Source of the DNA: a virus | Taxonomy: Duplodnaviria; Caudoviricetes | Virus record (IMG/VR): IMGVR_UViG_2898571807_000002 | Span: 36,977 to 100,976 of that record | DNA length: 64,000 nucleotides | Reading direction: 5' to 3' (one strand) | Shown here: in pieces, positions 47,374 through 51,067 of the stretch | Layout: the number at the start of each line of letters is the position of its first letter | How positions within the stretch are numbered: the stretch's first letter is position 1 | The notes under the pieces: generated by a model | The model's input: the letters and a program-made list of their open reading frames with translations, nothing else | The model's database searches: none | Told to the model about the DNA's origin: nothing | Program-made: the position numbers and the translations under genes

Positions 47374-48248
47374 GAGCGGTACATCCATTCATCCCGGGGG
47401 TTGATCTTCGGCTGCGTTGAACCACTCCCGTTGGGCGATGCGCGCCCCTTCTGCGCCTGGGCCTGGGCTTGGAGCCGCAACTTGTCGTACTGCTCGCGAA
47501 GCTTGGGCATCGACATGACGTTGCCGCGCCAGAACTCGTCGTCCTGGCACCAGTCGATGGCGCGGTGGATCTGTTCTTCCGAGCGCTTGTCGCTGTCGAT
47601 CAACAGACGGGCGGAGTCACGCCACTTCTTCGTGATCGACGGACGCTTGGAGCCGTGCTGCTCAACACGGTCAGCGAGGTGAGTGCAGAGTCGTTCGACG
47701 TCTTCTCGTCCCTCGTTGAGGTCGGAACGCTGCGAAGCAGCTTCCGATGAGGCGTCGTCCGACGCTCCCTCTCCTTCTCCCTCTCCTTCTTCACCTACAG
47801 AAGAGGGAGAGGGAGTGTTGGAAATGCCGTTACCGGAGAGAGACTCGTGAGGCCCTCCGGAGGCGTTCATGAAGTCCTCATGAAGATCGCTCCGGGATGC
47901 TCCGCAATCAGTCCGATTGCACGGAGGGATCTTCGACGGCCTCGGATGCTGCGGCTTCTGATGACTCCGCCACTCCGGAGCGTGCAGGTACCGCCGGTTC
48001 CCCACCGAGTACCGGCACAGCGACCCGGAGTCGGCGATCAACCCGATCCACTTGTCAATGTCACCCGCGGTCAGGTCATCATCGAGCGGAAGGCAATCCG
48101 CCTTGATCAGGCGCGCCTCGTCCACACCCCGGCCCGTGTCATCGAGATACCCCCAGAGCAGCACCCAGAAGTAGCGGACCTCACGCGGCCACTCGGCCGC
48201 CGTCAACGACGTCCGGAGCTCTGGTTTGACGCTGCGGATACGAGCCAT
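47370..48248 (-). CDS. Phage replication initiator
   Basis: MARIRSVKPE...LWGYLDDTGRG...HQKPQHPRPSKIP; C-terminal FWRGNVMSMPKLREQYDKL; upstream of the helicase. Confidence 0.8.
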   Translation of the reverse strand: MARIRSVKPELRTSLTAAEWPREVRYFWVLLWGYLDDTGRGVDEARLIKADCLPLDDDLTAGDIDKWIGLIADSGSLCRYSVGNRRYLHAPEWRSHQKPQHPRPSKIPPCNRTDCGASRSDLHEDFMNASGGPHESLSGNGISNTPSPSSVGEEGEGEGEGASDDASSEAASQRSDLNEGREDVERLCTHLADRVEQHGSKRPSITKKWRDSARLLIDSDKRSEEQIHRAIDWCQDDEFWRGNVMSMPKLREQYDKLRLQAQAQAQKGRASPNGSGSTQPKINPRDEWMYRS

Positions 48249-48292
48249 CAGATGAGGCGTCCCTCCAGTGAGATCGCGGATAGAGATGTCGA

Positions 48293-48368
48293 GGTCCAAG
48301 CCATGCCAAGCCACTCCGGACCAGGCCGAACCGCAGCCAGCCACTGCCATGCCATTCCGGCCCGGCCG
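48293..48368 (-). repeat. Orphan GGY-NN pentamer tract downstream of the accessory gene
   Basis: ...GGTTC GGCCT GGTCC GGAGT GGCTT GGCAT GGCTT GGACC. Confidence 0.75.
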
Positions 48369-48382
48369 CGTGAAGTCCTGCG

Positions 48383-48937
48383 TTATGCGGCCGGGTTCGA
48401 CGGCGCCGTGACCCCGTGGCGCTCCAGGAGTTCGGCCAGCCGGTCGACGCGCTCGGAGATCTCCGCGACGTCCGCCGAGGTGTCCCGGCGGAGCGCCTTG
48501 ATCTCGGCCTGCCGCTGCTCGTCCCGGGCCTCCAACCGACGGATCATGTCGGCGTGCTGACGGAGGCTCATCTCCAGCCCGTCGATCCGCTTCCGCTCCT
48601 CCGGGGTGAGCTTCGACCGGTCCGCGCTGGCGGCCTTGGAGACGGCCTTGCGCATCTGCTTCCGGGACCGGCGGTGGTGTCCGACCGCGAGACGCTCGTG
48701 CTCGTTCGCGGCGGCGATCCTGTACCCGGAACCGCGGACCGTGGCGAGCGTCCGGTGGTCGCACTTCTCCAGCTCGCTGATGCACCGGTAGACGGGCGAC
48801 CGGTCGTCGCGGAAGTCGCGGCCGAGGATCTCGTCCAGGTCGTCGTACGTCAGCACGGTCCCCTCATCGAGGGCCGACACGCGCTGGTAGATGAGCCGCC
48901 ACTCGGGCAGATCACCCTTGGGTTCGAACGGCTTCAC
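48383..48937 (-). CDS. Winged-helix plus coiled-coil accessory protein of the pentamer-array cassette
   Basis: GGAGG RBS before GTG 48937; LTYDDLDEILG...TVRGSGYRI wing motif; C-terminal coiled coil. Confidence 0.75.
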   Translation of the reverse strand: MKPFEPKGDLPEWRLIYQRVSALDEGTVLTYDDLDEILGRDFRDDRSPVYRCISELEKCDHRTLATVRGSGYRIAAANEHERLAVGHHRRSRKQMRKAVSKAASADRSKLTPEERKRIDGLEMSLRQHADMIRRLEARDEQRQAEIKALRRDTSADVAEISERVDRLAELLERHGVTAPSNPAA

Positions 48938-48957
48938 TGTTCCTCCCGATGGTCGTA

Positions 48958-49985
48958 GATCCCTGCCTCGCCTGGCCCGACCTCGCCATGCCTTGCTGAG
49001 CCCATCCGGGCCGTGCGGAGCCGTGCGTGGGCGCCACGGACCCGAACCGTGGTGTCTGCCGGTCGCCCTGAGTTCCCTGCCTCGCCTCGCCGAGCCCGGC
49101 CGCGCCAGACCGCGCCCGGCCTGGCCCCGCCAAGGACGTGGGCGCTCGGGCCTCGAACCCCAGTGGTTGCCGATCGCCCGTGAATCCCTGCCTTGCCGCG
49201 CCCATCCCGGCCTAGCCAGACGGAGCCCGGCATTTCCATGCCTCGCCTTGCCGAGCCTCACCCTGAGGAGAGGGCGGCGCGGGAGTCGAACCCGCGCTGC
49301 GACCGCGCGCCCTGCCTCACCACGCCGAGCCTTGCCCAACCAGGCGCTGCCCAGCCGAACCTTGCCCCGCCGTACAAGGCGGGCCGCGAGGAGTCGAACC
49401 TCACCGAAGACCGTCGGCCCTCCAAGCCCAATTGAGCCGCGCCTGGCCATGCACTGACCTGCCTGGCCATGCCAAACCCAGAACTGCCGCACCCGGCCGT
49501 GCCTTGTCGAAGCTGCCCGGAGGCAGGGGAAGGTCCGGGCCCGAAGCCCCCGACCAACCTCCGTCACCGGATCCGCGCCACACCTCGCCTGACCTCGCCT
49601 GGCCCGACAGTGCCCATCCGCTCCAGACCAGGCCTCGCCCCGATGAGCGGGTGCCGGGGGCTCGAACCCCGGGGCCTGCCTGTCACCCGTTCCTTGCCCG
49701 GGCTTGCCAGGGACTGCCGCGCCCAACCGAGCCATGCCGGAGCCAGCACTGCCGTTGCCCTGCCCAGACCATCCGGGGATGGCGGGAAGCCCCGGGACGT
49801 GCCCGGAGCCAGCCGCCGTCCCCGGAAGCTCGCCACGCCTTGCCGTGCGCTGCCGCGCCCGACCCAGGCTCGCCATGCCACGAGCAGGCGTTGTGTCGTC
49901 CGAGACGGGAGACGAAGAGGAGTCCATGCCGTGCCAAGGCATGCCAAGCCCGGCCAACCCTCGCCCCACCAGACCCCGCCTCGCC
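48958..49985 (-). ncRNA. Array of nine GGY-NN pentamer tracts separated by hairpins / tRNA-like T-arm elements (putative guide-RNA array)
   Basis: Tracts at 49921-49985, 49830-49879, 49689-49738, 49570-49639, 49424-49503, 49312-49371, 49183-49262, 49072-49131 and 48958-49022, each 10-16 pentamers in strict 5-nt register. Confidence 0.85.
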
Positions 49986-49989
49986 ATGA

Positions 49990-50568
49990 TCAGATCTCCT
50001 CGACCTCAGCCGCGAAGCGCCCGTACATCGACCTGAAATCGCCGAGACCTTCGAGTTCGCCAGCCAGGCGTGCGACCTCCTTGAACTCGTCCGGGTCGAT
50101 GGCCTTCGGGTCGATCACGATCTCTGCCTCGATCGCCCACTCCCGGAAGATCGGACGGCACCGGTCGACCTTGTTCCGCTGCACCGTCACGGGGCGGATG
50201 TCGACGTACTCCGACTCGCCGCCGCCCCACAGCCCGTCCACGGTCCGGGGGCCGTCGTAGATCAACGGGCACTGGAAGTCCGCGATGGACACGCCCCGCT
50301 CGACCTTCTTGCCGGCCTTGTTCAGCCGGGCCCCGCCGACGAGGGAACGGAAGAGGTTCTGGCCGGGGATGTACGGGCCGACCACGTCGTCGAAGTACAG
50401 GGACCCCTCGAACTCGACGCGGGCGATCTCCATGCGGTCCTCGTCGGTCTTGGTCCGCTTGGAGTTGAGCGCCTTCAGCCGCTTGGCGTACGGGTTGAGG
50501 GGCGAGGCCAACTGCACGTTGTGCAGCAGCAGAGGGCGAGTGCCCGTCGCCGTGAGCCGAACCTTCAT
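49990..50568 (-). CDS. Stand-alone RAMP/Cas7-like protein (putative RNA-guided effector)
   Basis: N-terminal strand VRLTATGTRPLLLHN, PYIPGQNLFRSL (compare RAMP PxIPGSSLKG), RCRPIFREW, C-terminal Gly-rich loop GLGDFRSMYGRF; AGGAGG RBS. Confidence 0.75.
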   Translation of the reverse strand: MKVRLTATGTRPLLLHNVQLASPLNPYAKRLKALNSKRTKTDEDRMEIARVEFEGSLYFDDVVGPYIPGQNLFRSLVGGARLNKAGKKVERGVSIADFQCPLIYDGPRTVDGLWGGGESEYVDIRPVTVQRNKVDRCRPIFREWAIEAEIVIDPKAIDPDEFKEVARLAGELEGLGDFRSMYGRFAAEVEEI

Positions 50569-50593
50569 GCGATGATTCCTCCTGTCGATGGAG

Positions 50594-50624
50594 CGGGACC
50601 CCGGACATTCCGGGGTCCCGTTTT
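50594..50624 (+). terminator. GC-rich hairpin with T-tail
   Basis: CGGGACCCCGG-ACATT-CCGGGGTCCCG followed by TTTT; 11-bp perfect stem. Confidence 0.6.
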
Positions 50625-50634
50625 CACTTGTTGA

Positions 50635-50694
50635 GCTCCCTGCCGCGCCGAACCCGGGCAGGCCATGCCACTCCGCGCACCAGCCAGCACCGCC
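50635..50694 (-). repeat. Leader GGY-NN pentamer tract upstream of the RAMP-like gene
   Basis: GGAGT GGCAT GGCCT GCCCG GGTTC GGCGC GGCAG GGAGC. Confidence 0.7.
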
Positions 50695-50739
50695 CTGTCA
50701 TGCGACGTGCTTGTCCAGGGGTGACTCCGCAGACGGATC

Positions 50740-50842
50740 GAGAGTACTCGTTAATCTGATCTGAGTACAGGTTTATAGAACAGGAATAAGATACAGGGCG
50801 TAGAATCGGGTACAAGGGACACGATCTGGCAACCTCGGACCC
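50740..50842. promoter_or_regulatory. AT-rich divergent promoter region
   Basis: AT-rich island; minus strand TTGTAC-N16-TATCTT and TATAAA; plus strand TAGAAT. Confidence 0.55.
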
Positions 50843-51067
50843 GTGGAGGAAAGGGTGAAGACACGACTGCGGGAGGCCGCTGTGGCATACAAGGCCGCAC
50901 CTATTGAGCTGCGAGACGCCATCCTCGAAGCCGCCGACGACGGGGCGACCGACGCTGAGATCGCCGTTGAGATCGACCTGACCTACTCGCCCGACTACGT
51001 GGGCCGGCTGATCCGTAAGTACCGCGGTCCCCGCAAGCGCGGACGACGCCCCTCCTCTGAGTCTTGA
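50843..51067 (+). CDS. Small HTH regulator divergent from the RAMP/array cassette
   Basis: LRDAILEAADDGATDAEIA...YSPDYVGRLIR; one of few plus-strand genes. Confidence 0.7.
   Translation: MEERVKTRLREAAVAYKAAPIELRDAILEAADDGATDAEIAVEIDLTYSPDYVGRLIRKYRGPRKRGRRPSSES

Follow-up and report, generated by a model that had tools for sequence, protein, structure and literature searches.

A VIPR cassette with tRNA-like elements between its guide tracts in the early operon of an actinobacterial provirus

The systems known as VIPR (Viral Interference Programmable Repeat) combine a minimal RAMP protein, Vipr, with vap accessory genes and occur mostly in viruses and proviruses; their guides, the vrRNAs, consist of 9 to 16 GGY/NN units followed by a structured 3' tail, and the target is read with one base skipped per unit (bioRxiv 10.64898/2026.04.26.720920,.720927, 2026.10.15.759431). 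We analyzed a 64-kb window (the whole stretch of DNA examined; 69% GC) from an IMG/VR provirus record of 100,976 bp, IMGVR_UViG_2898571807_000002, in which a cassette of this kind occupies positions 48298-50694 of the minus strand, where the genes near it also lie. An initial annotation of this DNA had listed open reading frames (ORFs), an AT-rich region, a leader tract of pentamers, a hairpin, a nine-tract array, and a final tract, and all of these parts were found in place. The three ORFs encode proteins of 192 amino acids (aa) (49990-50568, minus), 184 aa (48383-48937, minus), and 74 aa (50843-51067, plus). The first two, vipr and vap, are intact and have a strong third-position GC bias (the codon-position GC of vipr is 0.65/0.41/0.93).

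The 192-aa product of vipr (49990..50568) is a RAMP (Cas7-like) filament subunit, as had been proposed from its sequence. A phmmer search matched its residues 4-189 to PDB 36pp chain D, "SUSP1 Vipr protein" (E 1.9e-31), and it belongs to the PHROGs family phrog_4652 (E 6.6e-51). An AlphaFold2 model informed by 27 homologues had a pLDDT of 90.1, and the best PDB matches of this model by Foldseek were the Csm3/Cas7 subunits of type III, type VII, and Cmr complexes. In SUSP1 Vipr, residues H17, K33, R39, K82, R138, D177, W178, and R179 read G1/G2/Y3 or hold the DNA; alanine substitutions at K33, K82, R138, or D177 abolish silencing, and substitution of R39 reduces it (bioRxiv 10.64898/2026.04.26.720920,.720927, 2026.10.15.759431). 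These contact residues align here with H16, K32, R38, R81, R138, D177, F178, and R179, positions that are invariant or nearly so among 27 Vipr homologues. The C-terminal glycine-rich loop that had been singled out as a RAMP hallmark is the Vipr G-loop, GLGDFR, and includes the GGY-reading residues D177, F178, and R179. Pfam yielded no match to Vipr and nothing above noise for vap, and the PHROGs families of both proteins are annotated as of unknown function.

The 184-aa gene (48383..48937, minus) is, by sequence and profile comparison, a vap1 homologue encoding a predicted accessory DNA-binding protein. Its product matched gp33 of mycobacteriophage LittleE, which is encoded by the gene following vipr in that phage (BLASTP 2e-16), and falls in phrog_5926. 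In a profile comparison, the protein aligned with vap1 from wV8, a SUSP1-clade phage, and from a Pseudomonas phage (hhalign 98.1%, E 1.1e-13). The protein joins a winged-helix-like N-terminal region to a coiled coil; the gene had earlier been labeled a winged-helix gene.

Pentamer tracts surround these two genes. When both strands of the 64 kb were scanned for GGYNN in a phase-aware manner, runs of four or more units lay almost exclusively on the minus strand, with 13 at 48298-49985 and another at 50640-50669; elsewhere the window has only six runs, of 4-5 canonical units, that look like chance. Within the array, the autocorrelation of GG was maximal at lags 5, 10, and 15 (0.31, 0.30, and 0.26). 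Parsed in register and grouped by their tails, the units form a leader tract (v0), nine tracts between vipr and vap (v1 to v9), and one beyond vap (v10), each 10-16 units long and all on the minus strand. The leader v0 (50640..50694; run scan and tract parse) has 11 units, 6 of them canonical GGY, and ends in GGCGC GGCAG GGA; its tail is a perfect 12-bp hairpin (50594..50620; -31.8 kcal/mol, z -3.8) just ahead of the vipr ribosome-binding site. An upstream vrRNA is also present in relatives and in the SUSP1 clade. Downstream of vipr, the tract parse gave v1 (49926..49985; 12 units), v2 (49830..49879; 10 units), v3 (49694..49753; 12 units, 8 canonical), v4 (49575..49639; 13 units), v5 (49424..49503; 16 units, possibly two fused guides), v6 (49307..49371; 13 units, the final ones overlapping the acceptor strand of its tail), v7 (49188..49262; 15 units, possibly two guides with a small GGCAU/AUGCC hairpin between them), v8 (49077..49131; 11 perfect units, also found by the run scan), and v9 (48963..49022; 12 units, 9 canonical), whose terminus GGCAG GGAUCUAC adjoins the vap ribosome-binding site. 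The terminal tract v10 (48298..48367), recovered by both run scan and parse, has 14 units, of which 9 are canonical.

This association of gene and array recurs in related loci. We found 296 Vipr homologues, mostly of 192 aa, in actinobacteria and metagenomes, and 131 GenBank phages encode one. Twenty loci were compared, from Gordonia and Mycobacterium phages, Nonomuraea, Streptosporangium, Micromonosporaceae, Nocardiopsis, IMG/VR and metagenome contigs, wV8, and Pseudomonas phage Medea1. In 20 of the 20, GGYNN tracts adjoin vipr on the same strand; the initial annotation had held that its proposal would fall if homologues lacked such arrays. The order vipr, array, vap is common to the close actinobacterial relatives, and the cassette in relatives usually comes after integrase and cI/cro-like genes. 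A search for related loci with a single protein found none, and the same search with an alignment as the query succeeded. A megablast of the locus against GenBank phages gave no match.

Five of the tails in the window share one fold, the "top half" of a tRNA, in 40-44 nt. From an acceptor-like stem of 5-6 bp and a 10-11-nt linker that contains a conserved GG, each passes to a T stem of 6-7 bp, which an invariant G-C pair closes, and to a GUUCGANNC T loop (which reads TTCGANN); last come the 3' acceptor strand and a discriminator that is A or G, and CCA is not encoded. The acceptor and T stems together make 11-13 bp, as in a tRNA acceptor/T minihelix. A covariance model built from a seed alignment of the tails (R1) scored these minus-strand elements at 50.7 bits (v3 tail, 49647..49690; E 3.4e-9; also found by a pairing detector), 50.3 bits (v5 tail, 49379..49422), 45.1 bits (v6 tail, 49270..49314), 48.1 bits (v7 tail, 49138..49181; one T-stem mismatch), and 52.2 bits (v8 tail, 49027..49070; E 1.5e-9). 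The spacing from the last unit to the acceptor stem is 2-11 nt, and that from the discriminator to the start of the next tract is 3-10 nt. The tail of v2 is a long hairpin (49754-49829, minus; -51.9 kcal/mol, z -3.4), and that of v4 (49504-49574) folds as a non-canonical hairpin.

Because folding-energy z-scores were uninformative for GC-rich minihelices, covariation was used to evaluate the fold. The tail alignment shows no variation at the equivalents of G53, T54, T55, C56, and C61 or at one G of the linker GG, and next to none at the equivalents of R57 and A58 or at the other linker G. The pairing detector found 4 elements within 660 nt of the array and one elsewhere in 128 kb (both strands of the window), compared with 0.9 in Markov shuffles. 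The seed alignment (32 sequences from 10 loci) has compensatory changes at 11 of 12 pairs, and 98% of its cells are paired, versus 69% in shuffles and 40-56% with slid partners; R1 then gave 41 confident matches in the 17 sources searched first, without exception on the vipr strand. Four independent loci added later yielded another 17 elements with R1; each of these lies between vipr and vap on the vipr strand, 99.5% of their cells are paired, and 9 of 11 pairs show compensation. Seeds and model matches were both selected for pairing, and the paired percentages are to that extent inflated. In all, the window has 5 tRNA-like tails and the related actinobacterial loci have 53. R1 had no matches in the remaining 37 kb of the provirus and none in the SUSP1-clade or Pseudomonas loci, where the tails are H-type pseudoknots or otherwise different. 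Phages MakoManhole and Trine each carry a tRNA-like element ahead of the first tract, an element that has no tract on its upstream side.

Compared with tRNA itself (RF00005 clan) and with the tRNA-like domains of tmRNA and YrlA, the elements have the 12-bp coaxial stack of acceptor and T stems, the G53-C61 pair, and the T54-T55-C56-R57-A58 loop, and the linker GG could mimic G18-G19. They differ in having no D arm, anticodon arm, or encoded CCA, and they fall below every Rfam threshold. By the usual marks of a tRNA, then, an acceptor and T arm with G53-C61 and a TTCRA loop are present, while the D arm, the anticodon arm, and a score above the model threshold are absent. Rfam has no family for the element: its best match is tRNA-Sec, at 15-18 bits versus a gathering score of 47, accompanied by a sub-threshold mascRNA match and by microRNA noise on a CTCCCT repeat. 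ARAGORN sometimes fuses a tail with part of the preceding tract and reports odd 80-84-nt "tRNAs"; its miscalls are a tRNA-Ser at window positions 49378-49461 and a tRNA-Gly, a tRNA-Pro, and a tRNA of undetermined identity in related loci (L033:3603-3686, L033:3741-3820, and L005:3789-3857). The tail analysis of the VIPR authors was confined to the SUSP1 clade (bioRxiv 10.64898/2026.04.26.720920,.720927, 2026.10.15.759431), and tRNA is never mentioned in the text of those papers.

On the basis of homology, fold, residue conservation, tract statistics, and the conservation and covariation of the tRNA-like fold, we conclude with high confidence, a grading that applies to the explanation as a whole, that the cassette is a VIPR system of the SUSP1/Pseudomonas fulva kind. 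Its parts are vipr, an accessory gene of the vap1 family, and eleven vrRNA tracts of GGY-NN units, and its place in this actinobacterial provirus is the early/replication operon; its transcription, processing, silencing activity, and targets are steps that we only infer. The initial annotation had noted a resemblance to "VIPR" and had proposed a candidate RNA-guided system in which protein subunits bind GGY and the NN positions serve as guide. The resemblance is real, since VIPR is a published system and the 192-aa protein a Vipr homologue, and the proposed mechanism is the same as the published one, with the contact residues conserved. What had been put forward as a candidate system is thus a true member of an RNA-guided family and not a new kind, VIPR having already been published (bioRxiv 10.64898/2026.04.26.720920). 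The locus is a new actinobacterial member, and its array layout and tRNA-like punctuation are apparently a variant without earlier description.

Sequence comparison tentatively suggests a type II-like placement, in that the closest characterized Vipr is that of SUSP1 (type II) and a vap1 homologue is present; type II itself is a clade of the VIPR authors' Vipr tree. Like the type II systems of Escherichia phage SUSP1 and a P. fulva prophage, the locus has a homologous Vipr (~36-37% identity) with the same GGY-reading residues, vap1, tracts of ~10-16 units, one vrRNA upstream and an array downstream, a viral or proviral setting, and no cas genes nearby. It differs from them in the position of the array, which lies between vipr and vap here and after vap there; in its guides, which abut without AT-rich inter-guide spacers; in its tails, which are tRNA-like minihelices or plain hairpins instead of a ~40-nt H-type pseudoknot; and in its host, a high-GC actinobacterium. 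The hammerhead-ribozyme vrRNA arrays of VIPR types I and V (bioRxiv 10.64898/2026.04.26.720920, fig. S19) are likewise polycistronic, with structured RNA defining the guide ends, but they are self-cleaving and belong to another Vipr clade, whereas host tRNA-processing enzymes would be needed here. The backbone subunits of class 1 CRISPR effectors (Csm3/Cas7, Cmr4) resemble Vipr in their RRM core, G-loop, and thumb and in forming a guide-RNA filament with a base flipped at a fixed period. The present locus differs from class 1 systems in having no CRISPR repeats and no Cas6, Cas5, Cas10, or Cas1-2, and in a period of 5 with gapped, 2-of-3 reading of DNA, compared with contiguous 5-of-6 pairing. 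The earlier statement that cas genes and CRISPR repeats are absent stands for the repeats, no CRISPR-type long-period array having been found in the window by TRF, and for the RAMP, the stand-alone Vipr being the sole one that turned up there; cas genes were not sought gene by gene. The mark of CRISPR-Cas, a repeat-spacer array accompanied by cas genes for adaptation or effector functions, was not found.

One guide has a match that stands out. Judging from the sequence match, v1 probably addresses the coding segment of the vipr G-loop, whether in rival VIPR prophages or, as feedback, in its own vipr gene. By the 1-nt skip rule of our target searches, the NN series of v1, GA GG CT GG GA TT CG, corresponds to codon positions 1 and 2 of E-G-L-G-D-F-R, the wobble base being the one skipped. 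The match is in frame, at offset 516 of vipr in related prophages that include those of Streptosporangium and Nonomuraea, and totals at best 18/22 NN positions (82%), including seven consecutive perfect units; in a permutation null, this score was reached in 6/1000 cases, the seven-unit run in 1/1000, and both in 0/1000. An exact search of IMG/VR with the core pattern gave four matches, one of which is a vipr G-loop. vrRNAs that target vipr have been described in the published VIPR work, whose authors take matches at ≥80% of NN positions as the criterion for a natural target (bioRxiv 10.64898/2026.04.26.720920,.720927, 2026.10.15.759431). The provirus's own vipr differs from the v1 target by a rare AGG arginine codon, and we considered self-avoidance through this codon; the idea is weak, as v1 scores the same on its own vipr as on most rival genes. 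Exact v1-core matches in three IMG/VR contigs (L036, L037, and L039; 42-48% GC) encode EGLGELRRIY or EGLGDLRQM, with no Vipr detected there by tblastn; they may be G-loops of very distant RAMP/Vipr proteins or may reflect chance.

The remaining guides gave no comparable match. In the provirus itself, no guide matched beyond the permuted-guide null, and none reached 80% among guides with enough informative positions; v0 scored 10/12, a null-level value drawn from 12 positions only. Exact scans of IMG/VR with v8 and v6 returned zero matches. In GTDB genomes, v8 had 10 exact matches in unrelated phyla, none of them reaching the next unit, and v6 had 2 (Thorarchaeota and Clostridia), all of which we judged to be chance. 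A search of 401 genomes of the Nonomuraea order, a set drawn around the relative G001, gave 2 matches at ≤2 mismatches, versus 3 for a reversed control. In a related locus, the last guide of a Nonomuraea prophage (L006:5247-5301) matches, at 18/20 NN positions, the conserved HxxR region of the tyrosine integrase gene of a Streptosporangium prophage (L007:359-387, minus). This pairing of a guide with an integrase catalytic region is a candidate inter-prophage target and would fit prophage-prophage conflict.

Several observations weigh against our interpretation. Ten of the eleven guides have no above-chance target in the searches as scoped above. For v1, the score on its own vipr is 17/22, equal to that on most rivals and below the authors' 80% cutoff, and therefore anti-VIPR targeting and autoregulation are inseparable; discrimination of self from non-self would hang on a single arginine codon. 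The v1 match also lies on the 5' side of the guide, whereas SUSP1 R-loops extend from the 3' end. About one-quarter of the GGYNN units are degenerate, and the tails in the window are of several sorts (tRNA-like in five cases, plain hairpins in two, and weak in several others), so a single tail function is not obvious.

By homology with the solved SUSP1 complex, Vipr protomers would polymerize along each tract, two adjacent protomers clamping each GGY through H16, R138, D177, F178, and R179, and the exposed NN pairs would read double-stranded DNA with one base skipped per unit. Bound targets in competing mobile elements would then be silenced transcriptionally, with vap boosting the effect. The guides abut, with gaps of 3-10 nt that leave no space for promoters of their own, and a precursor covering them must therefore be cut. 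We propose that the whole array would be transcribed as one precursor and that host tRNA-processing enzymes would cut it at the tRNA-like elements, RNase Z after the discriminator base and RNase P possibly on the 5' side, thereby setting the guide ends. Punctuation of transcripts by tRNAs is familiar from mitochondria, polycistronic tRNA-gRNA (PTG) arrays, MALAT1-mascRNA, and the tRNA-miRNA transcripts of gammaherpesvirus 68, in which RNase P/RNase Z release the products. The present elements likewise place an acceptor/T-arm module between functional RNAs; they differ in that those transcripts contain full or near-full tRNA units, whereas here there is a top half with a GG linker, and processing is our proposal. 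An acceptor/T minihelix without CCA is a classic minimal substrate of RNase Z and RNase P.

We consider it rather probable that the tRNA-like tails act as such processing punctuation. They could instead be a retained 3' cap, equivalent to the SUSP1 pseudoknot, that nucleates or terminates the Vipr filament and shields the 3' end from exonucleases without being cut. In SUSP1 the guide keeps its structured tail, which caps the filament and is considered necessary for complex formation, and the present elements occupy the same position, directly 3' of a conserved last unit (GGCAG GGA here and GGTAT GGG in wV8). A fixed cap fits poorly, however, with the 2-11-nt variation between last unit and acceptor stem and with the different tails within one locus, and the upstream element in MakoManhole and Trine has no guide to cap; a free acceptor/T minihelix with a 5' leader is, moreover, a standard RNase P substrate. 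Because of the variable spacing, the heterogeneous tails, and these elements without an upstream tract, we favor processing and regard a cap as possible and rather doubtful.

We think it improbable that the locus is a decaying, non-functional VIPR remnant. Its many degenerate units, its non-canonical tails, and the number of guides for which no natural target was found could be read in that way, but vipr and vap are intact with strong third-position GC bias, the functional residues are all kept, and the VIPR authors noted that active vrRNAs are often degenerate internally; given how sparsely actinobacterial mobile elements have been sampled, it is also to be expected that targets were not found. 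We dismiss as very improbable that the array is coding (as a 534-aa ORF at 48383-49987) or that its punctuating elements are real tRNA genes or pseudogenes: the frame is open across the array, gene callers put ORFs on such arrays, and ARAGORN calls a tRNA-Ser here and a tRNA-Gly and tRNA-Pro in a relative, but the period is 5 and not 3, the array has no codon-position bias (GC 0.74/0.72/0.72), for which reason the 534-aa ORF is spurious, and the elements are only 40-44 nt long, have a linker of 10-11 nt where a tRNA has its D and anticodon arms, and reach no more than sub-threshold tRNA-Sec scores in Rfam. Long ORFs are laid over vrRNA arrays in Trine (gp40; L005:3591-4394) and in a 338-aa JGI gene call (L033:3579-4595), as in the window, where only the vap portion of the 534-aa ORF is a real gene; the Trine and L033 ORFs are probably spurious for the same reason.

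The genes around the cassette encode a Zn-ribbon/endonuclease-VII-like protein, a replication initiator (phrog_2149, E 7.6e-46), and a DnaB-like helicase. The divergent 74-aa helix-turn-helix gene had been counted as a member of the cassette. It has no counterpart in any related locus, and the other VIPR loci compared lack homologues of it and of the Zn-finger and replication-initiator genes alike; all three are therefore neighbors and not VIPR components. Between the helix-turn-helix gene and the leader lies an AT-rich divergent intergenic region (50700..50842; 49% GC at 50700-50799 versus 69% overall), the putative promoter/operator of the vipr operon. Scans for promoter (sigma-70) and terminator consensus sequences gave no matches. 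In this region, a 14-nt direct repeat, GAGTAC..GTT.AT, occurs in two copies (50742 and 50763) that are 21 nt apart, and the pair, at 50742-50776, could be an operator. A CTCCCT/GAGGGA-rich near-palindrome at 47730-47846, within the replication-initiator gene, encodes a Gly/Glu repeat and yields spurious Rfam microRNA matches.

VIPR has so far been characterized in phages of E. coli and Pseudomonas, and our survey indicates that it is common in temperate phages of high-GC actinobacteria, where cultivable Mycobacterium and Gordonia carriers (LittleE, Trine, and MakoManhole) allow direct study. There is about an even chance, in our estimation, that the actinobacterial branch hands guide maturation to the host tRNA machinery, with RNase Z and RNase P acting at half-tRNA modules; through these modules, the guides may also become accessible to CCA addition or to tRNA-modifying enzymes. 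We know of no earlier prokaryotic RNA-guided DNA-targeting system that is matured through tRNA processing. The tRNA-like punctuation offers a testable answer to how packed vrRNA arrays mature without promoters or ribozymes of their own and suggests a compact natural design for expressing multiple guides; if true, maturation by host tRNA machinery would be a natural counterpart of engineered tRNA-gRNA arrays. For annotation, the arrays are a pitfall, as tRNA finders and gene callers mislabel them as odd tRNAs or long ORFs, which affects phage tRNA counts. Finally, the v1 match suggests that VIPR-against-VIPR conflict, or self-regulation, reaches the actinobacterial clade.

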